Origin: an uncultured Pseudomonadota bacterium
GTDB lineage: Bacteria; Pseudomonadota; Alphaproteobacteria; RF32; CAG-239
Length of the DNA stretch: 64,000 nt
Assembly (NCBI GenBank): GCA_902788365.1
Contig: CADAJN010000003.1
Location: forward strand, 58,656-122,655
Direction of reading: 5' to 3'
How positions within the stretch are numbered: position 1 is the first letter of the stretch; every line of letters starts with the position of its first letter. Shown piece after piece: positions 38,636 through 57,224 of this stretch. The notes below the pieces were generated by a model. That model was given only the letters and a program-made list of their open reading frames with translations. It had not been told where the DNA came from and ran no database searches. The position numbers and the translations under genes are program-made.

Positions 38636-40396
38636 TTATTGGTTTTTATAAGCGGCTTTAACAATATTTTTTTGTTTTTCAATATCAAAATCTACCTGCA
38701 CATTAAGTTGTGGTGCCACCGAAGTGATAATATTTTTGGTAATTGGCACCGCATTCCAGCCGGCTTCGGTATGACCGAACGTTTCTTTACTGCCTTTCGG
38801 ATCATCAACCACCACCAAAAGTGCATACTGCGGATTAGACTCCGGAAAACCGGAAATAAATGTGGAAATACTCTTTTTATGATTATAGTGCCCGTTTTCC
38901 AATTTATCGGCCGTGCCGGTTTTGCCGAACACCTGATAGCCCTCAACATTAGCACGTCGTCCGGTGCCGCGCACCACCACTGCACGCAACAAATGCCGCA
39001 TGGATTCGGAGGTTTTTTCCGATACCACACGTCGCCCTTCACGATGCTTTTGCAGCAAAAGACTCGGTTCAAAATACATACCGCCGTTAACTACCGCCGC
39101 AAATGCGCTGATAATATGCATCGGCGTTGTTGAAATACCATATCCGTAGCTGATTGTTGCCATGGTATGATTGGTCCAGCGATTGGCATTCAAAAACAAC
39201 GGCCGAGCCACTTCCGGCAGTTCAAGCGCCGAAAGTTCCTTATCCATATTGATGCGTTGAAAAAATTGACGTTGAAACTTTTTACCCACCTGCATAACTT
39301 CTAGCGTTGAACCGATATTTGACGATTCTACCAAAATATCTTCCGGCGTTAACATTTTATGCGAGCCGTGCGGATCGGAAACGCGCGCCTTTCCAAAATA
39401 AACCGGTCTTGATGTATCAAATCTGTCAGTTACTTTCACTTTGCCGCTTTCCAAGCATAAGGCGGTATTAAACACCTTAAATACCGAGCCAGCTTCATAT
39501 ACGCCTTTAGTGGCAAAATTAAACATTTCGCGCTCGCCGACTTTAATATTTTCATTCGGATCAAAATCAGGCACCGAAGTCAAAGCTACAATTTGACCGG
39601 ATTTTACGTCCATCAAAATTGCTGCTGCACCTTCGGCATTAAATTGCTTAACCCCCTCAATTAAAGCATCGCGAATCGTATTTTGAATACCTAAATCCAC
39701 TGATAAATACAGTGGCTTGGTTGAGGTTGTCAATCGTTCGTTCATATATTTTTCCAAACCGGAAATTCCGACATTATCAATATTAGTATTGCCAAGCACA
39801 TGCGCAAACAAATTTTTATGCGGATAAATACGCTTTTCAAAATTTTCAAATTCCAGAGCCGGAATTCCTAAATTATTGACTTGCGATTGCTGCGCCGGCG
39901 ACAAATTACGCTTTAAATACACAAATGTGGTTTTACGGGTCAGTAAATCATAAAATCGTTCAAACGACACTTCCGGAAAAATGTAATTGAGTTTTTCTGC
40001 CACGTCACGCGGATTTTTTATCTTTTTGGCGTTGGCATAAAGATTAACCGTCGGCAACGATGTGGCTATAATTTCGCCGTTACGATCCAAAATGTCGGCA
40101 CGCTTCACCGGATTCTTCAAATGCAAAAATTCTTCTTCGGCCAACTGTTCGGAAGCAATTGCCGTATCAATATTGATGCCTTTACTTAAACAAACATAAC
40201 TGACGCGCGCGCACAATATAATATATGCCAAAACAAAACAACATAACGAAAAAATAATGCGCTGACGACAAATTAGAACATTATCGCTTTCTGTGGTATA
40301 GGTTTTGTGCGTCAGACCGCAAGAGATTTTCACCTCTTGCCCCGGCAGATAAAATCTGTCTGCATTTTTCTTTGAAAAACCTATCTTCAAACCCAT
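38636..40396 (-). CDS. ftsI: Peptidoglycan D,D-transpeptidase FtsI (PBP3-like)
   Basis: 586 aa with SxxK (SVFK), SSN and KTG(T) motifs. Lies within mraZ-rsmH-ftsL-ftsI. Confidence 0.9.
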   Translation of the reverse strand: MGLKIGFSKKNADRFYLPGQEVKISCGLTHKTYTTESDNVLICRQRIIFSLCCFVLAYIILCARVSYVCLSKGINIDTAIASEQLAEEEFLHLKNPVKRADILDRNGEIIATSLPTVNLYANAKKIKNPRDVAEKLNYIFPEVSFERFYDLLTRKTTFVYLKRNLSPAQQSQVNNLGIPALEFENFEKRIYPHKNLFAHVLGNTNIDNVGISGLEKYMNERLTTSTKPLYLSVDLGIQNTIRDALIEGVKQFNAEGAAAILMDVKSGQIVALTSVPDFDPNENIKVGEREMFNFATKGVYEAGSVFKVFNTALCLESGKVKVTDRFDTSRPVYFGKARVSDPHGSHKMLTPEDILVESSNIGSTLEVMQVGKKFQRQFFQRINMDKELSALELPEVARPLFLNANRWTNHTMATISYGYGISTTPMHIISAFAAVVNGGMYFEPSLLLQKHREGRRVVSEKTSESMRHLLRAVVVRGTGRRANVEGYQVFGKTGTADKLENGHYNHKKSISTFISGFPESNPQYALLVVVDDPKGSKETFGHTEAGWNAVPITKNIITSVAPQLNVQVDFDIEKQKNIVKAAYKNQ

Positions 40397-40398
40397 TT

Positions 40399-40761
40399 CT
40401 ATCTCTTAACAGCTTTAACAAATGTTGTTAAACCCTTATTATCGGTTTTACGCGGTTGTGCGGCGTTTCCGTCCTCGTAGTTAAACTGTAATACAGAATA
40501 GTTAATAATTTGTTCAGGCTTGGCATTTTCCAGCGATAATTGTTCATATGCCAATTTGCGTAGGCGTTCTGGCGTATTATAATGGCTCCACTCTGCCTTT
40601 AAAACGTGAATATTTTCAATATCTTTCTGTATATTTGTATTAATAGTTGCCAAACGGCGCTCCAAACGTTGCACCTTATTTTTCAGCACCGAAGAACCCA
40701 GTGCAACTGTAAGAGTCAGTGTCAACCATAAAATGACCATCGCTGTTTTAATGTTGCTCAA
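40399..40761 (-). CDS. ftsL: Cell division protein FtsL-like
   Basis: 120 aa with a single N-terminal TM plus coiled coil, positioned between rsmH and ftsI. Confidence 0.6.
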   Translation of the reverse strand: MSNIKTAMVILWLTLTLTVALGSSVLKNKVQRLERRLATINTNIQKDIENIHVLKAEWSHYNTPERLRKLAYEQLSLENAKPEQIINYSVLQFNYEDGNAAQPRKTDNKGLTTFVKAVKR

Positions 40762-40765
40762 TTTA

Positions 40766-41677
40766 TTACCTCCTTATTGCATATCTGAGTTTTGCCGAGC
40801 GCGAACGCGGATTTCGTGCACATTCTTCTGCTGTCGGCATTATTGCCTTAGATGTTTCCGCAAACAAGCTGTTATCGGCCACCAGAGCCGGTGCATATTT
40901 TGAAACCCGAACTTTCTGCGAGCCGTTTTCTTTCATAAATGTTTTGACAATGCGGTCTTCTAACGAATGAAAATCTACCACCACCAATCGCCCGCCCGAA
41001 AGCAAACGACCTGCGGCACCTTGCAAACCACGTTCTAATTCGCCGAGTTCATCATTCACGGCGATTCTGAGTGCCTGAAAAGTCCGTGTTGCCGGATCAA
41101 TTTCACCGCCATGCTTATGCAAAACCGTATAAATGATTTCCGCTAACTCGGTTGTGGTTTCAATCGTTTTTTTGCGCCGATATTCAACAATTTTTTGCGC
41201 AATTTGCCGCGATTTACGTTCTTCGCCGTATTGATAAATTAAATCAGCCAAATCTTTTTCAGCGTATGTATTCACAATATCGGCCGCACTCAAACCTTCG
41301 CACGACATACGCATATCTAAAGCTGCCTCTTTGGCAAACGAAAAACCGCGTTCGGCATCATCAAATTGCATTGAAGAAACACCGATATCAAACACTGCAC
41401 CATTGATTTTTTCGTTGACCAAATCGGTAAAATCGCCGAATTGACCGCTTCTAAATTCAAACCGCGCACCATACATATTTTTCAATTCATTGGCGCGAAT
41501 CCGCACATTCGGATCACGATCAAGTGCGATTACTTTGCAATCTGCCGCATCTAAAATGGCTTGGGTGTAACCGCCGTTACCGAATGTGGCATCAACATAA
41601 ATCTCGCCTTTTTGCGGGTTTAAATATTGCAAAACCTCGGAAAGCATCACCGGAATATGTCGCTCTCTTTGTGCCAT
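40766..41677 (-). CDS. rsmH: 16S rRNA (cytosine1402-N4)-methyltransferase
   Basis: HIPVMLSEVL...DATFGNGGYT SAM-binding motif. Confidence 0.9.
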   Translation of the reverse strand: MAQRERHIPVMLSEVLQYLNPQKGEIYVDATFGNGGYTQAILDAADCKVIALDRDPNVRIRANELKNMYGARFEFRSGQFGDFTDLVNEKINGAVFDIGVSSMQFDDAERGFSFAKEAALDMRMSCEGLSAADIVNTYAEKDLADLIYQYGEERKSRQIAQKIVEYRRKKTIETTTELAEIIYTVLHKHGGEIDPATRTFQALRIAVNDELGELERGLQGAAGRLLSGGRLVVVDFHSLEDRIVKTFMKENGSQKVRVSKYAPALVADNSLFAETSKAIMPTAEECARNPRSRSAKLRYAIRR

Positions 41678-42144
41678 TATTGCTCGTCCTTTGCTGCTTT
41701 AAGAACCGGCCGATGCGCCATAACCTCGGCTCGGATACGTGCTTCTTCCTTAGCCCAATTTTCCGGATTCCAAATTTGAAATTTACGACCTTTTCCGACA
41801 AACACCGCCGTATCACTAATTTGTGCATGCCGCAATAATTTTTCGGTCAAAACAATGCGCCCGGTGCTGTCAAACGTAAAACGCTTGGCATCTCCGAAAA
41901 TCAAGTTGGTCAAATTGTCTTGGGTTTCCGAAAAAAAGTCGGTGGCATTTTCAATGTCGGTTGCCAGTTTATCCAACGTTTCCTCCAAACATCCCTCTAT
42001 GCACGGCGCCGATAAGCTGCGATAACAAACAATCTCTGTTGATAATTCTTTAACAATTGCGCGGTAATCTGACGGCAAAGAAACGCGACCTTTGGCGTCT
42101 ACTTTGTTGAAAATCGTATCCATAAACAGAAAGATTTTGCGCAT
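41677..42144 (-). CDS. mraZ: Transcriptional regulator MraZ
   Basis: Two DxxxR-type repeats (KVDAKGRVSLPSDYR / FDSTGRIVLTEKL). First gene of the dcw cluster. AAGGA RBS. Confidence 0.88.
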   Translation of the reverse strand: MRKIFLFMDTIFNKVDAKGRVSLPSDYRAIVKELSTEIVCYRSLSAPCIEGCLEETLDKLATDIENATDFFSETQDNLTNLIFGDAKRFTFDSTGRIVLTEKLLRHAQISDTAVFVGKGRKFQIWNPENWAKEEARIRAEVMAHRPVLKAAKDEQ

Positions 42145-42449: not shown

Positions 42450-42899
42450 TTAAGCAAAACACCAGCGGATAATTTGCCAAATACTGCCGGCAAGAACGGT
42501 AAATAAGACACAAATAATACCGATAACTATTATGGCAAATAAAAATACCATCTTGCCAAGCAGATAAAAGATATAAGCACTAACCAAAACAACCGCATAC
42601 GCCAAAATATAATCAGCAAAGGGCGGTATATCGGCAAGCAATATACCTTTCATTGTCGGATAAACAGCAAATGCAGCGCCAATTATCAGAACAAAAATCA
42701 TTCGAGAGATAATTTGCAGAATCCGCTCTTCTTTAGGGTAGGTCAGTTTAATCATCAACGGGTTGCTTTGCTTACTCGGGTCCTCATCAATTTCCTTGAG
42801 ATGCCAGATACCCATATGCACGATTCCCATTATGAAACTCGCCACTAAAATAAATTTCCACACTAAACCAATGTGGTCTGCAATCGATTGTATAGCCAT
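42450..42899 (-). CDS. Hypothetical membrane protein (149 aa, 4 TM)
   Basis: Hydrophobic segments. No motif. Confidence 0.45.
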   Translation of the reverse strand: MAIQSIADHIGLVWKFILVASFIMGIVHMGIWHLKEIDEDPSKQSNPLMIKLTYPKEERILQIISRMIFVLIIGAAFAVYPTMKGILLADIPPFADYILAYAVVLVSAYIFYLLGKMVFLFAIIVIGIICVLFTVLAGSIWQIIRWCFA

Positions 42900-43124: not shown

Positions 43125-43736
43125 TTAGATATCGGCAATGACTTCTATTGAAATAATCCGATCCGGCGACGACACCATCCCGTTTGAACCGCTGCCGCGC
43201 TTAATCAAATCCACAAATTCCATGCCCTCAATAACTTGTCCCCAAATAGTATATTGACCGTCAAGCCAAGGACAATCGCCAAAGCAAATAAAAAATTGGC
43301 TGTCGGCAGAATCCGGATCCATTGCCCGTGCCATAGATACTGTGCCACGCTTGTGCTGCAAACGATTAAACTCAGCTTTGAGTTTTTTACCGCTACCGCC
43401 AGTGCCGTCACCGCGCGGACAACCGGTTTGTGCCATAAAACCGTCAATTACGCGATGAAACTTCAAACCGTTATAAAAACCTTGCCGAACCAGCTCTTTA
43501 ATACGCGCCACATGCTTTGGTGCCACATCCGGCAACAATTCAATAATCACATCGCCGTCTTTAGTTTTCAGCAGCAGAGCATTTTCAGCATCTTTCACCG
43601 CGTATGAATGTTTAATTTTCTTGGCACGGCTCTGGCTCATGCCTATTTTTTTGGTTTCCTTATTTTCAAGTTTTTGTGTGCTCGGTTTTGAAATATTTTT
43701 AGTTTCGGATTTTTGCAATAAATCAGTCATTTTCAA
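43125..43736 (-). CDS. Cyclophilin-type peptidyl-prolyl cis-trans isomerase with a Lys-rich N-terminal extension
   Basis: FHRVIDGFMAQTGCPRGDGTGGSG cyclophilin signature. Confidence 0.85.
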   Translation of the reverse strand: MKMTDLLQKSETKNISKPSTQKLENKETKKIGMSQSRAKKIKHSYAVKDAENALLLKTKDGDVIIELLPDVAPKHVARIKELVRQGFYNGLKFHRVIDGFMAQTGCPRGDGTGGSGKKLKAEFNRLQHKRGTVSMARAMDPDSADSQFFICFGDCPWLDGQYTIWGQVIEGMEFVDLIKRGSGSNGMVSSPDRIISIEVIADI

Positions 43737-43774: not shown

Positions 43775-44728
43775 TTAATCGTGATTCAAGACATAGTCCA
43801 CTCTTTCTTCGGCCGAAAGATTTTTCGGATAATCTTTATCAATTTTTTTGATGGCATTTATTAAGCCGCGACCGTTGGCAATTTGAATAGCCAGTCCGGG
43901 ACGTGCATTTAATTCCAACATCATCGGCCCACGGTCTTTGTCAAGCACAATATCGGCACCTAAATACCCCAATCCCGTCAGCTCGTATGCTTGAGCTCCA
44001 ATCAGCAGATGTTCGCGCCAAAACGGCACTTTTAAGCCCATCAAATCAGCGCCTGTATCCGGATGATGGGTAATCGGTTGATTGTGGCACACCGCTTGCA
44101 GTGTATTACCTGTGCGAATATCCAGACCAACACCTACTGCGCCTTGGTGCAAATTGGCACGGCCGCCCGATTCTTTGGTAGCCAGCCTCATCATTGCCAG
44201 TGCCGGATAGCCCTTATAGACAATTACGCGCACGTCCGGAATACCCTGAAAGCTGTAATCCTTAAACACATCACTGAAATGCACTAATTCTTCCACCAGC
44301 GCCACATCATATTGGCCACCTAAACTGTATAAGCCGCTCAAAATATTTGAAACGTGCTGATAAACCTCACGAAAACGCAACTCTTTGCCAGAAGCGGTTG
44401 TATAATGCCCATCTTGATATTTTTTAATTACCAAAACACCTTTACCCTGACTGCCGTGCGCCGGCTTAACCACAAACTCTTTATGTCCGCGCACAATTTT
44501 CGGCAAATCAATCACTTCATATTGGTGTTCTATGACCCCAATCATGTGTGGTGTGTTAATATCTATGCTGTTGGCCAGTTGCTTGGTTTTAACCTTATCA
44601 TCTACCAACGGATACAATGAACGCTTATTATAATGTGCAATGATTTTATAATTACGTGCATTCATACCCAAGACACCGGCTTGATGAAATTTGCGCGCAT
44701 ACGAAAAATAGTGCAGCCACTCAAACAT
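43775..44728 (-). CDS. Alpha-L-glutamate ligase-like (RimK-related ATP-grasp) protein
   Basis: ATP-grasp fold motifs (VVKPAHGSQGKGV...ELNARPG). Conserved partner of the two following genes. Confidence 0.75.
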   Translation of the reverse strand: MFEWLHYFSYARKFHQAGVLGMNARNYKIIAHYNKRSLYPLVDDKVKTKQLANSIDINTPHMIGVIEHQYEVIDLPKIVRGHKEFVVKPAHGSQGKGVLVIKKYQDGHYTTASGKELRFREVYQHVSNILSGLYSLGGQYDVALVEELVHFSDVFKDYSFQGIPDVRVIVYKGYPALAMMRLATKESGGRANLHQGAVGVGLDIRTGNTLQAVCHNQPITHHPDTGADLMGLKVPFWREHLLIGAQAYELTGLGYLGADIVLDKDRGPMMLELNARPGLAIQIANGRGLINAIKKIDKDYPKNLSAEERVDYVLNHD

Positions 44729-44730
44729 CT

Positions 44731-46263
44731 TTATTTATCCTTTACAAGTGCGGCAAAGCGCTTAATTTCGGTTAAACGATAGCCCGTATATGTGCCGAGC
44801 AACATCACAATCGCCAAAATCACAAAGTTCCACTCGTTAAACGCAAACATAATATGGCGAATATACGAACTGCTGACGACCAAATATGTCACAACCGCCA
44901 CAAATAACGTGTTAACAATTTGCTTAATGGCATTTCTGGCGCCGTCTTCTTCCCATGTAATGCAAGCACGTTCAATAATCCATGCCGTAATAATAATCGG
45001 GAAAAATGCCGCCGATGCAATAACACGCCAATCAGCCTGATAACCAAACACCGTCAGCACCTGCATGATGATAATTACAAAAATGACCACTGCGGAAATT
45101 CTCGGCACCAACAATAAATTGAGCCGCGTTAGCAAAGTGCGGATTAAAAGACCGAGCATAACAATAACGCTAAAGCAAATAAATCCTGCCCAAAATCCGG
45201 TTTTAATCAGCGACATGGCAATCAGCATCGGTGTAAATGTTCCCATAGTGGAAATACCGACCACGTTACGCAACAACACCACCAATAAAATACCCAGCGG
45301 AAAAATCATCAACCATTTAAGGGCGTTTTGTTCCAATGACGGCAAATCATAAATAGTCCAATTAAACAAACGACTGTTTTCATACTTAGCGCGACGACCA
45401 GCCATTTTAAACGATGAAATCACTGATTTTGCCACCGCAAATTTGACTTCGGAATTAACCCCACCGCTTACATCCAAAAGCGAAACGCCGCCGCGTTGAA
45501 AAATAACAAAGTTTTTCGGTAAACCATCTTCGCCGGTTTCTATGTCATAAATCTTCCATTTACTGCCTTCATACACCTCCAACATCAAATCCGCGCGCGA
45601 AGAATGTTTCTTTTCCGCTAATTTCACGCCGCGCACAATACGCGCCGGAATTCCTTTTACCGAAAGCAAATAAATAATCTTATCCGCCATAATTTTCGGC
45701 GATTTTTTTACCGGCAAAAAAGCATCTACCTGCGGCGCTAATTCTTCCTCATTAAGCAGTTCAATGATGCGCCTTGCGGCACTGCCTTCTTTGGCATCGG
45801 CCAGCGTCCAAATTTCGTTAATCATCGCCTCTTGCAATTCATCATTAAACGCCGGCTTTTTAATTTTCGGCGGTGTTTTTTCCCAAACCTTACCGGTCAC
45901 ATCTTCGTTATCGTAAATCATAATGCGATAATAGACATTCTGTTTGTTTTTACGCCCTTTAGAACGCATGGTAATACGATGATTTTTATCGTCTTTTTGC
46001 ACTTCATAACCTTTAGCCACGGTATCTTCGCTCAAAATTTTATATTCCTTGGCAATACTTGGCGTAGAAAGTGAAACTTCTATCGGTTCACCGGTCGGCT
46101 GAAAAGACACATGGGCATCAATAGTCCACACATCTGATTTTTCAGTCGGTTTAAAACTGAAGCCCCAAACCGTGATTTTATAATATGTTGCCCAAACGGC
46201 AAAAATTGTTGTTAACAGCAAAAACAGCGTTAACAAACCTCTGACAGAAAGAATCTTTTTCAT
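44731..46263 (-). CDS. 7TM protein fused to an inactive transglutaminase-like periplasmic domain
   Basis: N-terminal soluble domain of about 300 aa, then 7 hydrophobic helices. 2-bp gap to the RimK-like gene. Confidence 0.55.
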   Translation of the reverse strand: MKKILSVRGLLTLFLLLTTIFAVWATYYKITVWGFSFKPTEKSDVWTIDAHVSFQPTGEPIEVSLSTPSIAKEYKILSEDTVAKGYEVQKDDKNHRITMRSKGRKNKQNVYYRIMIYDNEDVTGKVWEKTPPKIKKPAFNDELQEAMINEIWTLADAKEGSAARRIIELLNEEELAPQVDAFLPVKKSPKIMADKIIYLLSVKGIPARIVRGVKLAEKKHSSRADLMLEVYEGSKWKIYDIETGEDGLPKNFVIFQRGGVSLLDVSGGVNSEVKFAVAKSVISSFKMAGRRAKYENSRLFNWTIYDLPSLEQNALKWLMIFPLGILLVVLLRNVVGISTMGTFTPMLIAMSLIKTGFWAGFICFSVIVMLGLLIRTLLTRLNLLLVPRISAVVIFVIIIMQVLTVFGYQADWRVIASAAFFPIIITAWIIERACITWEEDGARNAIKQIVNTLFVAVVTYLVVSSSYIRHIMFAFNEWNFVILAIVMLLGTYTGYRLTEIKRFAALVKDK

Positions 46264-46281
46264 TTGTAACAGTCCCGATAA

Positions 46282-46812
46282 TTATTTTAAAGTATTTGAA
46301 AGCGAAACGTCAACAATGGCACGACCGGCCAAAATATTGCGTCCGACTAATGTCTGATATTCAAACTTTTCACGCTCGGCAATCGTAAAATCAGCCTTAA
46401 ACGTTTTACCGCCCATTTTCACATCCATTTCTACCATCGGCCGACGCTCGTCTTCAATAATGCGTTTAACACGAATACGCTTGACAATCGGCTTTTCAAA
46501 CGTGTATTTTTCTTTGGTTTCGCGGTTGACAATCGTGAAAGACACCCAACGCTCGCCGTCACGCTCAAAGCGCTTAATATCTTCGGCATCCAATGAGGAC
46601 GTGGTTGCACCGGTATCTATGCGCGACATAAAAGCCGACTTCATCGGCGGCAAATAAATGCGTTCCACCGCACCGATCACGTTATTAGGCATAACGGTAA
46701 CCACTTTAGGTTCTTGTGCTGAATGCGGTGCAATAGCCGGCACAATTTGCGTATTTTCTTTGGCACACGCCGCCAAACCCAAAAGACATAACAAATTTAA
46801 CAATTTGCGCAT
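46282..46812 (-). CDS. Retropepsin-like aspartic protease lipoprotein ('ATP-dependent zinc protease' family, DUF785-like)
   Basis: Lipobox LGLAAC. D-T-G motif in RIDTGATTSSL. Start set at MRKLLNLL. Confidence 0.65.
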   Translation of the reverse strand: MRKLLNLLCLLGLAACAKENTQIVPAIAPHSAQEPKVVTVMPNNVIGAVERIYLPPMKSAFMSRIDTGATTSSLDAEDIKRFERDGERWVSFTIVNRETKEKYTFEKPIVKRIRVKRIIEDERRPMVEMDVKMGGKTFKADFTIAEREKFEYQTLVGRNILAGRAIVDVSLSNTLK

Positions 46813-46939
46813 TTTTAACCTTTCGCTTTGTTCAATTTCAGTTATGTCACATAATCTACTTTTTTTAAATAAAGTCCAGTAAAAAAAAATATCCGCCGAC
46901 AATTTTTTTATTGCCGACGGATGGTAAAAACAGGATTTT

Positions 46940-48088
46940 TTAGAAAAATACGGTCAAACGCAAGGAGGTTGCCGTGCCGTAATCGGATTTTTGATTTTGT
47001 GCCGGATGAATGTAAAATTGTAAATCCGGCGTTAATGTAGCCCATTTTGAAATGCCCCACGCCCAATAAGCTTCCAAAACCTGCTCGGCACTGTGATAAA
47101 TCGATGCGCCGACCGCGTCTTCATCTATTTCATTATATGAATATGAAAAACCGATTTGGTCAAGTTCGTTGCGGTCAAGCGGATTATTGATAACACTGCC
47201 TAACACATACGAGCGGTTAATTTCTGCTATGTGGCCGTTTACCCCGTTTACGCGTCCGAAAAGAGCCCATTTTTTTCCGATGTTTTGCTGCATATTGAGC
47301 GACCAACCGGTCGTTGATTGCGGTTGCAAACTCACATACGGTTGGTTATAGACCAACACTGAATATTGCCCCTGCCCGAGTCTTTTGATTGTCGGATTGT
47401 AGCCGATTTGTCCGAATGTGGTAAAATGCCCGTCATCTAAGCGATTAAAGCGAATGCTCGGCGCATTGATATTGGTGGCATCCAAAAAGCCGGCAATAAA
47501 TTGCCAATTTCCCGGCTCGGCTTGCACATAAGCACCTAAGCCGGCATCAGAATATGTGGCACTGGCATTTTGCGCCGAAGCATAGTTCAAAAAATTAACC
47601 TGCTGATTGTTATCATAATCTGTGCCGTCAAAATTATATAAACTGTATTGTCCGACGCCGAATGTCAGCCAATTATATTTGGCCGGTAATTGATATGTGT
47701 AATACAAATCGGCAAATTCCTGCTCATCACCGCCAAAATCGTTAATTGGCGTAACAAAACCCGAATTGGCTTGAATATCATTGGCATTGTGATTACCATA
47801 ATAAATACTGTAATATGATGCATTTAAAACGCCGGTACCGTATTCGTTATCAAAGGTTGTCCATGTGATTGACGGTGCCAAATATGATTGAAAGGCATTG
47901 GCATCTCCACTCGGCGAAGTGCGCTGCAATAAAGCGGAATAAGTCAAATTATAACTAAAACCGTAACGATTACTGAGATAATTTTTGAATGCTGTGTATT
48001 CATCACCCAAAGTGCGCGATTCCGCTTGCGCCGCCGAAATCGGCCCCAATAAACCGATTAAAATATACAACCATTTTTTCATTTTCAT
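46940..48088 (-). CDS. Outer-membrane beta-barrel porin (OprB-like, tentative)
   Basis: Signal peptide, alternating beta-strand pattern and a C-terminal ...LRLTVFF. Confidence 0.55.
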   Translation of the reverse strand: MKMKKWLYILIGLLGPISAAQAESRTLGDEYTAFKNYLSNRYGFSYNLTYSALLQRTSPSGDANAFQSYLAPSITWTTFDNEYGTGVLNASYYSIYYGNHNANDIQANSGFVTPINDFGGDEQEFADLYYTYQLPAKYNWLTFGVGQYSLYNFDGTDYDNNQQVNFLNYASAQNASATYSDAGLGAYVQAEPGNWQFIAGFLDATNINAPSIRFNRLDDGHFTTFGQIGYNPTIKRLGQGQYSVLVYNQPYVSLQPQSTTGWSLNMQQNIGKKWALFGRVNGVNGHIAEINRSYVLGSVINNPLDRNELDQIGFSYSYNEIDEDAVGASIYHSAEQVLEAYWAWGISKWATLTPDLQFYIHPAQNQKSDYGTATSLRLTVFF

Positions 48089-48294: not shown

Positions 48295-48726
48295 TTATTT
48301 GCGAGTGGCTTTGACATAGGCCATCATCGCATGCTCATCACAATATGTTTGACCGGAACGCACTTTCTTGCCGCAAAAAGAAAAGTCATCATCACGCGGA
48401 TCACCAAGCGGCCATCTGCAAGTATGGCTATCTAAATCAACCAAACGAACCTTATCGGTGGCATCTGATGTAACGGATGCCGCAGCACTTTTAGCCGGTT
48501 TAATTTCACGCACCGGTAACAATTCTTGAACCGGCGCGGCTTCTTTTTCTGTCTCAATTTCTTCTTTCTTTTTAATCGGCGACGGACGTGCCGTCAAACA
48601 CAGACGGTGCACTTTTCCGACAATAGAATTTTTAGACACGCCCAATTTTTTTGCAATTTCGTTGGCTGTTAAGCCCTCTATCCACATTTGGCGTAAATCT
48701 TCCACCATTTTTTCGGTCCAAGCCAT
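48295..48726 (-). CDS. gcrA: Cell-cycle regulator GcrA
   Basis: MAWTEKMVEDLRQMWIEGLTANEIAKKLGVSKNSIVGKVHRL N-terminal domain, and conserved C-terminal HTCRWPLGDP...FCG. Confidence 0.9.
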   Translation of the reverse strand: MAWTEKMVEDLRQMWIEGLTANEIAKKLGVSKNSIVGKVHRLCLTARPSPIKKKEEIETEKEAAPVQELLPVREIKPAKSAAASVTSDATDKVRLVDLDSHTCRWPLGDPRDDDFSFCGKKVRSGQTYCDEHAMMAYVKATRK

Positions 48727-48855: not shown

Positions 48856-50097
48856 ATGCGTTTATTGATTTTACTTTGTCTGTTTTTGCTGACAAGACCG
48901 TGTGCGGCACAACTCAGTGAGTATAATCATTTGTATGATGTGGACGCAGATGAAAAAATTCCGCTCGTTTGGCGCTTGGAAAAAGAATATAAGCAAAAAC
49001 ATTCGCTTTATGATTGGCGATATGATTTTAATTGGGCAATGCCCAAACAATTTGATACCGATTTTCAACAAAACATTACCGATTTCGGTGCCATTGAAAA
49101 ACGTTTGGAAAATCCGGATGAAGAAAGCCTTTTGCGCGACATCAAACGCATGCCTAAAGAGTTTTATCCTTATATAGGACCGATGTTGCACACCGTGCGC
49201 GGTCTGTCGGGCAAAATTTTGGATTTACCGGGGATTAAAGAAACCAAAAACCAATTTCCGGCACACATTGCTTCGGTGTTTAAGGATAAGCCTTATATTG
49301 AATATGCTTCTCCGGAATTATATATTTTTCTGATGCCGGAATTATGGGGAGAAGGTGCCTCGGCGATTGAATATCCCAAAATCAAACGCCAAAAAAAATT
49401 GCCGCTTAGAATGCGCATTAACCCGAAATTTATTGAGGCACTTAAAAAGAATGTGCCGATAGAAAATTATACCAACGGTCATCGCCCGCCTAAACCGGAT
49501 ATGGGTGTTCGTCACTTTTATGCCGACAAAAACACACCGTTATCGGGAGCTGATGTTAAAGCTTTTTTAGGCACTATTGACGGTCTGAAAGACTTTTTAC
49601 ATCAAAATGATAATGAAATTCAGCTGATTTTGATAGATTCGTTATTAAATTACTGGGATGAAAAAAACGGCACACATCGCTATGTCTCTTTTTTAAAAGG
49701 TGCGGTTAATCCATGTCAAACCATTGCCCGTAAGATTAAATGGAAAGGTATGCGCTCCGAATTTCAAGAATATATCGGCAAGCAGGGCTTTGGTCTGGAC
49801 GATTGGGCTTATACCTGTGACAAAACCTTAAAGGCCTATCGCGTGGCCACCATGCCCAATGCCTACATTACGGGACTGAGAATGCTCAAAAAAGGCTATT
49901 TGTATGAAATGTGGAAATATATGGATTTTACCGAAGAAGAACGGCAAATTCAAAAATACTTCATTGAAGCGTCAATTCATTTATACGATTCTACGGTTGA
50001 AAACGTCAATGCCGTTACCCCTTTCCGCCGCGAATTACAAAAAGCATGGATTGAGCTTGGCGACCATTACGGTGGCACACCGCTGATTATTCCGTAA
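48856..50097 (+). CDS. Secreted hypothetical protein (413 aa)
   Basis: Signal peptide MRLLILLCLFLLTRPCAAQ. AT-rich. No motif. Confidence 0.5.
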   Translation: MRLLILLCLFLLTRPCAAQLSEYNHLYDVDADEKIPLVWRLEKEYKQKHSLYDWRYDFNWAMPKQFDTDFQQNITDFGAIEKRLENPDEESLLRDIKRMPKEFYPYIGPMLHTVRGLSGKILDLPGIKETKNQFPAHIASVFKDKPYIEYASPELYIFLMPELWGEGASAIEYPKIKRQKKLPLRMRINPKFIEALKKNVPIENYTNGHRPPKPDMGVRHFYADKNTPLSGADVKAFLGTIDGLKDFLHQNDNEIQLILIDSLLNYWDEKNGTHRYVSFLKGAVNPCQTIARKIKWKGMRSEFQEYIGKQGFGLDDWAYTCDKTLKAYRVATMPNAYITGLRMLKKGYLYEMWKYMDFTEEERQIQKYFIEASIHLYDSTVENVNAVTPFRRELQKAWIELGDHYGGTPLIIP

Positions 50098-50176
50098 TTT
50101 TTGAAAAAAACTGTTGCATTTTATAAATAGAATCTGTATAACCTTTTTAAAATTAACACTTATAAGGGTAATAAAA

Positions 50177-50641
50177 ATGGCAAGAGTTACTGTTGAAGAC
50201 TGTATTGATAAAATTCCTAACCGCTATGACTTGGTTTTAATTGCGGCGCAACGTGCGCGCGATATTTCGGCCGGTGCCCATTTGTGCGTTGACCGTGATA
50301 ATGATAAAAATTCGGTTGTGGCGTTACGTGAAATTGCCGAAAATCGCGTCAGCATTGAAGATTTACAACGCTCTTTAGTGATGGGACTGCAAAAATACGT
50401 TGAAACGGAAGAGCCGGAAGATGAAGAAGTTGAAATCGTTTCGGCCGCGAAAGAATTGGCTGATTTGGATGAAACTTTCTCCAGCGATATGATTAGCGAT
50501 GAAGATTTGTCAAGCACCATGCAAATTCACGGTGAAGATGAAGACGAAGATGCTTTGGATTTAGATTCCGACACTGATTTCGGCTTTGATGATGATACCG
50601 ATTTGGGCGATGATTTTGACAGCGATGATGATTTAGATTAA
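50177..50641 (+). CDS. rpoZ: RNA polymerase omega subunit with a long acidic C-terminal tail
   Basis: [30 protein letters not shown] core. About 75-aa D/E-rich extension. Upstream of spoT. Confidence 0.85.

Positions 50642-57148: not shown

Positions 57149-57224
<76 letters not shown>

Follow-up and report, generated by a model that had tools for sequence, protein, structure and literature searches.

A likely orthologue of the rloA-rloB-rloC operon in an uncultured alphaproteobacterium of a gut and rumen lineage

Three genes on the minus strand of a 64,000-nucleotide stretch of DNA from an uncultured Pseudomonadota bacterium (Alphaproteobacteria; RF32; CAG-239; GenBank assembly GCA_902788365.1, contig CADAJN010000003.1, positions 58,656 to 122,655; hereafter the window) are very probably orthologous to the rloA-rloB-rloC operon of Pseudomonas aeruginosa. 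They encode a retropepsin-like peptidase (RloA), a membrane protein with an inactive transglutaminase-like domain and seven transmembrane (7TM) segments (RloB), and an ATP-grasp ligase (RloC). We assigned the locus to this system because all three products match the corresponding Pfam and NCBIfam models, the best PDB matches of the peptidase are the RloA structures 9g58 and 9g59, the genes stand in the order of PA1768-PA1767-PA1766, and the trio is conserved in other genomes. Nothing in the window copy departs in kind from the known rloABC, and its variations are minor. What is new here is another copy of rloABC, in a gut and rumen lineage of Alphaproteobacteria; the operon, its name, and its phenotype in Pseudomonas were already known.

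A preliminary description of the window had reported three tightly packed, co-directional genes with gaps of 2 and 18 bp. The listing of open reading frames (ORFs) bears this out, with 18 bp (46264 to 46281) between rloA and rloB and 2 bp (44729 to 44730) between rloB and rloC. The order of transcription is opposite to the order in which the genes had been listed: the retropepsin gene comes first, the 7TM gene second, and the ATP-grasp gene last (Table 1). The neighbourhood had also been called conserved but functionally uncharacterised. Its conservation stands, on the evidence of 80 related loci and all five distant loci that were inspected, but it can no longer be called uncharacterised, given the NCBIfam RloA and RloB models and the work of Lormand et al. 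(mBio 2025, PMC12239564).

The published rloABC system

In P. aeruginosa, where the operon was named (PA1768-PA1767-PA1766; PA14_41690/41710/41730), RloA is a secreted retropepsin-like peptidase, RloB an inactive-transglutaminase 7TM protein, and RloC a cytoplasmic ATP-grasp protein (PMC12239564). The RloA structures (PDB 9G58 and 9G59) are retropepsin-type dimers with a basic substrate channel, and a disulfide Cys pair is described as conserved in periplasmic RloA orthologues (PMC12239564). In vitro, RloA cuts the substrates 8E and 10E, needs at least eight consecutive glutamates, and is able to cut polyglutamylated RpsF; K46, R114, and R137 coordinate polyglutamate, and R114 and R137 are required both in vitro and in vivo (PMC12239564). 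A triple rloA-paralogue mutant dies in low-salt (salt-free) medium and shows defects related to biofilm, beta-lactams, and cell shape, and deletion of either rloB or rloC rescues it, placing both genes epistatic to rloA; rimB has no genetic interaction with rloA (PMC12239564). The authors raised peptidoglycan homeostasis as a possibility (PMC12239564). A literature search for work on Rlo after Lormand et al. 2025 found none.

The three proteins

The retropepsin assignment of the first gene product was confirmed by a domain search (PF05618, E = 1.2e-33). With the NCBIfam models the protein scored 107 bits for RloA3, 78 for RloA2, 72 for RloA1, and 67 for RimB (NF052261), all under narrow cut-offs of 210 to 280 bits for the RloA models and 200 bits for RimB. 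Scores under such narrow cut-offs, here for RloA and below for RloB, are what a distant orthologue would be expected to give. The closest PDB matches were the RloA structures 9g58 and 9g59 (E = 1.8e-15 and 5.9e-15), followed by Lpg0085 of Legionella pneumophila (2pma, E = 1e-9), and these alignments span both the DTG motif and the C-terminal arginines. The window protease domain thus falls in the same fold family as these three structures, which are of soluble constructs and all have a longer flap than the window RloA.

RloA consists of a signal peptide with a lipobox, a tether of about 27 residues, and a protease domain (residues 44 to 176) with the catalytic motif D66-T-G-A69. In the signal sequence (MRKLLNLLCLLGLAAC) a basic N-terminus is followed by a hydrophobic core and by the lipobox LAAC, which ends in Cys16, and an equivalent signal ending in Cys is present in nearly all of 78 related RloA genes examined. 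RloA is therefore predicted to be a lipid-anchored lipoprotein, which at the level of sequence pattern agrees with the earlier suggestion of a lipoprotein with a D-T-G motif. In the alignments with 9g58 and 9g59, R64 (two residues ahead of D66), R123/R124, and R147 correspond to K46, R114, and R137 of P. aeruginosa RloA. R92, which falls in the variable flap, could not be placed. Judged by alignment gaps and by spacing from the catalytic Asp, the flap is about 8 residues shorter than in the solved relatives. There is no Cys pair for a disulfide in mature RloA, in which the sole Cys is the putatively lipidated Cys16, and the same is true of most relatives. The former name of PF05618, 'ATP-dependent zinc protease', was also considered. 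The only His of the protein (H30) lies in the tether, outside the protease domain, and a zinc-binding His motif and the old label could therefore be ruled out; the solved PF05618 relatives are retropepsin-fold aspartic peptidases.

RloB matched PF14400 (E = 5.8e-27) and PF14402 (E = 2.4e-81) and was covered end to end by the NCBIfam RloB model (profile positions 9 to 508 of 508), at 290 bits with a cut-off of 900. Its predicted topology comprises an N-terminal anchor helix, a periplasmic transglutaminase-fold domain (about residues 28 to 305), the 7TM region (about 309 to 492), and a basic cytoplasmic tail. This is the 510-residue inactive-transglutaminase and 7TM protein of the preliminary description, with a single anchor helix at the N-terminus besides the seven C-terminal hydrophobic segments. 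No Cys occurs in residues 23 to 318, so the Cys-His-Asp triad of catalytic transglutaminases such as TgpA is absent. Searching the PDB with the single sequence returned nothing useful, and a profile of 87 sequences gave only a marginal match to TgpA (E = 0.02). An AlphaFold2 model built from 72 homologues was of moderate confidence (predicted local distance difference test, 75.8; predicted template modelling score, 0.56).

The distribution of conserved residues in RloB was evaluated across 87 sequences (25 to 50% identity), a column being counted as conserved at 85% or more. The 7TM region accounted for 50 of the 61 conserved columns and the periplasmic domain for only 10, and in the transglutaminase fold only W46, P68, W236, and G267 were near-invariant family-wide. 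The conserved charged residues (R332, R375, R388, E431, R432, E439, R496, E499, and R502) all lie in loops. These loops have a mean of 1.4 to 3.8 Lys plus Arg residues, compared with 0.4 to 0.7 in the alternate loops. Therefore, by the positive-inside rule, the conserved charged loops are assigned to the cytoplasmic side.

RloC was best matched in Pfam by PF14397 ('sugar-transfer associated ATP-grasp', E = 5.9e-88), with weaker matches to RimK and other ATP-grasp families, and it passed the TIGR02291 model ('alpha-L-glutamate ligase-like protein') with 427.8 bits against a cut-off of 314.2. These results confirm the ATP-grasp assignment made earlier. The RimK family model (TIGR00768) gave 44.5 bits against a cut-off of 143.4, and the S6 ligase model (NF007764) gave 26.5 against 331. 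RloC has no hydrophobic segment. Its nucleotide and Mg motifs (VVK88P, G92-S-x-G-x-G97, R190-A-N-L-H-Q-G, D259, and E272-L-N274) are intact and do not vary among six distant orthologues. Ahead of the ATP-grasp core there are only about 40 residues. In weak local matches to solved RimK structures, residue 43 is paired with RimK residue 98, and in matches to RimK-family models with approximately positions 84 to 101, which indicates that the RimK-type N-terminal domain, normally an aid to acceptor binding, is missing from RloC.

Conservation of the trio

When one genome per species was scanned, 303 species had a relative, and the best 80 of these were examined as related loci. Nearly all of the 80 are from gut, rumen, or faecal metagenome-assembled genomes (MAGs) of Alphaproteobacteria (roe deer, yak, sheep, horse, human, and chicken); they include "Acetobacter sp. 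CAG:977" and Candidatus Scatocola, and RloB has many close homologues in alphaproteobacterial MAGs. The order and orientation of rloA-rloB-rloC were kept in all 80 loci wherever the contig reached, with median gaps of about 24 nucleotides between rloA and rloB and about 2 nucleotides between rloB and rloC.

The family extends well beyond this group. An exhaustive search of 1.84 billion cluster representatives returned 1,738 RloB relatives at E of 0.001 or better, 405 of them at 1e-30 or better, and the homologues in a profile search were assigned to Pseudomonadales, Vibrio, Burkholderiales, Steroidobacteraceae, Aliiruegeria (Rhodobacterales), and Sulfurovum. Five distant loci, from Vibrio, Aliiruegeria, Burkholderiales, Sulfurovum, and one further genome, all contained PF05618, PF14400/PF14402, and PF14397 genes in that order; within the trio, neighbouring genes overlap or stand a few bases apart, and the flanking genes are entirely different. 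Because the trio is kept amid different flanks in every one of these loci, the three-gene core is the conserved unit. The association of the three genes is far beyond chance, and the gene-neighbourhood comparison that the preliminary description had proposed thus found the same order in related and distant loci alike. Identity to the distant copies was 49 to 55% for RloC, 34 to 41% for RloB, and 35 to 45% for RloA, making RloC the most conserved of the three proteins across classes.

The lipid anchor and the missing disulfide were considered as features unique to the window lineage. This was rejected because both occur in other classes and are therefore variants within the family: lipobox-type signals are also present on RloA from the operons of Vibrio salinus, a Burkholderiales MAG, and one further genome, and a Cys pair was found in none of the five distant operon-linked RloA proteins (including those of Vibrio, Aliiruegeria, Sulfurovum, and Burkholderiales). 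The linker between signal and protease is 60 to 110 residues long, and partly coiled-coil-like or Pro/Thr/Gln-rich, in V. salinus (locus L081, 4216 to 4983), the further genome (L083, 4245 to 4967), and the Burkholderiales MAG (L085, 4192 to 5001), and the tether of the window RloA is far shorter. Within the window there is no RimK, RimB, or second RloA paralogue.

Proposed function and alternatives

The window locus shares with P. aeruginosa rloABC the three protein families, their gene order, and their tight packing, as well as the DTGA site, the basic channel residues, the inactive transglutaminase domain, and an RloC predicted to be cytoplasmic. It differs in that its host is an alphaproteobacterium rather than a gammaproteobacterium, in that its RloA is predicted to be a lipoprotein while the annotation of PA1768 gives a type I export signal, and in that its RloA has no disulfide and is about 8 residues shorter in the flap. 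In addition, the window RloA and RloB score under the NCBIfam cut-offs, and a cyclophilin gene follows closely behind rloC.

The most likely function for the trio is that it makes, exports, and trims an anionic polymer, a mechanism to which we give a probability of roughly 0.45. RloC, with no acceptor domain of its own, would work where the RloB 7TM region presents its conserved, charged face to the cytoplasm. The chain that RloC builds there would be rich in glutamate (poly-alpha-glutamate) and either free or attached to a component of the envelope. RloB would pass or present the anionic product to the periplasm, with its catalytically dead transglutaminase-fold domain serving as a periplasmic binding or scaffold module. 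There, a lipid-tethered, dimeric RloA with a basic channel would cut the polyglutamate and limit its level, and in its absence the product of RloB and RloC would build up and harm the envelope. That RloB and RloC generate something harmful when RloA is missing follows from the rescue of the triple rloA mutant by rloB or rloC deletion. We infer the other steps, namely that RloC makes polyglutamate, that it docks on RloB, and that RloB exports or presents the product; the polyglutamate specificity of RloA, the analogy with RimK and RimB, the intact RloC motifs, and the conservation of the RloB cytoplasmic face are consistent with them. The peptide ligation or processing pathway at the envelope that had been suggested earlier is supported by these observations and agrees with current thinking.

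Gram-positive bacteria make poly-gamma-glutamate with PgsBCA/CapBCA, a membrane-associated, ATP-dependent polymerase and export complex that acts together with the extracytoplasmic depolymerases PgdS and CapD. The pairing of a polymerase-exporter with an extracytoplasmic depolymerase is the arrangement proposed here for Rlo. However, the proteins are unrelated (PgsB is Mur-ligase-like), the linkage is gamma rather than alpha, and no homology between Pgs/Cap and any Rlo protein was seen in our searches.

Several points weigh against polyglutamate synthesis and export. A product of RloC is not known from any organism, and Lormand et al. call the natural RloA substrate and the activities of RloB and RloC unknown (PMC12239564). 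The Pfam family of RloC is named for sugar transfer, so its acceptor could be a glycan or cell-wall precursor instead of a peptide. All of the phenotypes come from Pseudomonas, and the specificity of the window RloA, with its shorter flap and no disulfide, might differ. Furthermore, a model in which RloB is a sensor fits the genetics equally well. In that model the dead transglutaminase domain would make RloB a receptor for a ligand in the periplasm, which might be an acidic peptide, and RloB would signal across the membrane to activate RloC, which would modify a cytoplasmic target. RloA would destroy the ligand, and loss of RloA would leave RloB and RloC permanently and harmfully active, which fits the rescue of the triple mutant by either deletion. 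An extracytoplasmic, noncatalytic domain joined to a 7TM region with its strongest conservation on the cytoplasmic face would suit a receptor, and no transporter homology for RloB was corroborated. We nevertheless consider signalling of this kind, including its proposed consequence, unlikely. No cytoplasmic target is known, the model needs an independently made acidic ligand and P. aeruginosa encodes none, and conservation within RloB is lowest in the periplasmic domain, which has only 10 of the 61 conserved columns, a pattern that would not be expected of a specific ligand sensor.

The name of PF14397 also opens the possibility that RloC is an amidoligase that adds an amino acid to a carboxylate of a lipid-linked precursor held by RloB (of peptidoglycan, exopolysaccharide, or a periplasmic glucan), with RloA removing or editing the added peptide after export. 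The cell-shape, beta-lactam sensitivity, and hypo-osmotic survival phenotypes of Pseudomonas and the peptidoglycan homeostasis suggestion of Lormand et al. would fit, as would Shewanella HM2192, an inactive transglutaminase plus 7TM protein whose disruption leads to over-production of membrane vesicles and altered vesicle size (J Bacteriol 2025, PMC12096838). HM2192 is likened to RloB by annotation of the same architecture and by its envelope phenotype; only the RloB-type gene was studied there. The window operon is, moreover, 1.6 kb upstream of mraZ-rsmH-ftsL-ftsI, but this adjacency to a division and cell-wall cluster is seen in only a minority of related loci, and no glycosyltransferase or flippase gene lies beside the trio in the window or in the five distant loci. 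The requirement of RloA for at least eight consecutive glutamates in vitro likewise argues for a polymer, not a single added residue. We therefore regard such an amidoligase as quite improbable.

The remaining alternative is a cytoplasmic system for polyglutamylation of ribosomal protein S6, of the type in which RimK makes poly-alpha-L-glutamate (also in free form) and its partner retropepsin RimB trims polyglutamate (Little et al., JBC 2025, PMC11957791). The resemblance is real: the Rim pair, an ATP-grasp glutamate ligase (RimK) with a polyglutamate-trimming retropepsin (RimB), is homologous to RloC and RloA, and P. aeruginosa RloA cuts polyglutamylated RpsF in vitro. In contrast to Rlo, however, the Rim proteins are cytoplasmic and have no membrane component, and the RimK-type N-terminal domain is absent from RloC. 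A ribosomal function is extremely improbable, and we exclude it because the Rim model scores are far under their cut-offs (44.5 of 143.4 and 26.5 of 331 bits for RloC, 67 of 200 bits for RloA), RloA has an export signal with a lipobox, and a membrane-protein gene stands between the protease and ligase genes. The lack of a genetic interaction between rimB and rloA in P. aeruginosa points the same way.

Transcription unit and neighbouring genes

Table 1. Features of the rlo locus and its immediate neighbours (positions in the window)
Feature	Position	Strand	Evidence
rloA, retropepsin-like aspartic peptidase, predicted lipoprotein, 176 aa	46282..46812	-	PF05618
rloB, inner-membrane protein, 510 aa	44731..46263	-	PF14400 + PF14402
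rloC, cytoplasmic ATP-grasp ligase, 'alpha-L-glutamate ligase-like' family, 317 aa	43775..44728	-	PF14397, TIGR02291
Terminator-like hairpin (predicted), interval between porin gene and rloA	46891..46922	-	Consensus scan and direct sequence reading
Cyclophilin-type peptidyl-prolyl isomerase	43125..43730	-	PF00160, E = 1.8e-45
OprB-family porin-like gene, upstream of rloA	46940..48088	-	PF04966, E = 3e-13 (weak)

The listed frame of rloA (46282 to 46902) opens with a TTG, and an in-frame ATG at 46812 gives the protein of 176 residues. The ATG, with which the preliminary description had ended the module, is the better start because the TTG lies inside the hairpin upstream and a ribosome-binding site, AAAGG, is just 5' of the ATG. 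The hairpin is a strong one, its 13-bp stem having 6 G-C pairs and being followed by T9, and is predicted to be the upstream boundary of the rlo transcription unit. A sigma-70 promoter scan of the interval between the hairpin and the rloA start gave no convincing site. The region has a G+C content of 0.42 to 0.43, the same as the remainder of the window; Rfam and tRNA scans found nothing inside or beside the operon, and none of the three proteins matched the PADLOC anti-phage defence models at an E of 0.001 or better.

The cyclophilin gene begins 44 nucleotides past the rloC stop, with no terminator-like site between them. Its product has a Lys/Ser/Thr-rich N-terminal extension of about 50 residues, and the PF00160 domain starts at residue 54. 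The gap to rloC is 100 nucleotides or less in 65 of 74 related loci, and no cyclophilin gene was found in any of the five distant rlo loci. The cyclophilin gene is thus possibly co-transcribed with rloABC in the gut alphaproteobacterial lineage, outside the conserved core. The porin-like gene upstream of rloA is on the same strand in 63 related loci, in 22 of which an insertion of more than 1 kb intervenes, and it is absent from the distant rlo loci. We rejected it as part of the module because of the intervening putative terminator, the frequent insertions, and its absence from distant loci; it most likely forms a separate transcript. Other flanking genes, namely those for GcrA, a 413-residue ORF, and rpoZ, are equally syntenic in the related group, and adjacency alone is therefore not proof of a functional link for either the cyclophilin or the porin.

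These flanking genes are, on the far side of the porin gene, the gene for the alphaproteobacterial cell-cycle regulator GcrA (48295 to 48726); the 413-residue ORF (48856 to 50097, plus strand), which has a hydrophobic N-terminus and no Pfam family and lies beside the GcrA gene in many related loci at 45 to 86% identity; and rpoZ (50114 to 50641, plus strand). The RNA polymerase omega subunit encoded by rpoZ has 175 residues, with the Rpb6 domain confined to residues 29 to 81 and a long, very acidic, Asp/Glu-rich C-terminal tail after it. On the other side, mraZ-rsmH-ftsL-ftsI (38636 to 42144, minus strand), the start of the division and cell-wall cluster, lies on the same strand as the rlo operon, 1.6 kb downstream, an adjacency found in a minority of relatives and probably not meaningful. 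Between the cyclophilin gene and mraZ is a gene for a 149-residue protein that has about four hydrophobic segments and belongs to no Pfam family (42450 to 42899, minus strand), and just upstream of it is a promoter-like site (42973 to 42945; 11 of 12 matches).

At the far end of the window the G+C content falls from about 0.42 to between 0.30 and 0.34, from about 58 kb to the window end, just beyond a tRNA-Thr gene (57149 to 57224, minus strand). The genes between about 57150 and 64000 encode two YgjV-like membrane proteins, an alpha/beta hydrolase, an HD-domain protein, and two ORFs without a Pfam family. This segment is possibly an acquired island beside the tRNA gene.

Implications for the rlo family

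The comparison narrows the search for the chemistry behind the established Pseudomonas phenotype, both the product of RloB and RloC and the natural substrate of RloA. It directs attention to the conserved cytoplasmic face of the RloB 7TM region and to RloC, which has no acceptor N-domain and shows the highest conservation within the trio. If synthesis and export of polyglutamate by RloB and RloC is correct, a bolder form of it can be put forward, which as a whole we consider tentative and rather doubtful. RloB and RloC would be a new type of membrane-coupled synthase and exporter that places poly-alpha-glutamate, or a polyglutamylated envelope molecule, in the Gram-negative periplasm as a tunable polyanion, and RloA would be its depolymerase. 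In the gut alphaproteobacterial version the protease would be tethered by a lipid, and a co-transcribed cyclophilin would join the machine as a lineage-specific fourth component.

In P. aeruginosa the rlo operon touches osmotic survival, biofilm formation, beta-lactam sensitivity, and cell shape. The trio is a fixed core across a group of uncultured gut and rumen Alphaproteobacteria and occurs also in Rhodobacterales, Burkholderiales, Vibrio, and Campylobacterota. Given the breadth of this occurrence, the rlo pathway is a general Gram-negative envelope function and not a peculiarity of Pseudomonas.

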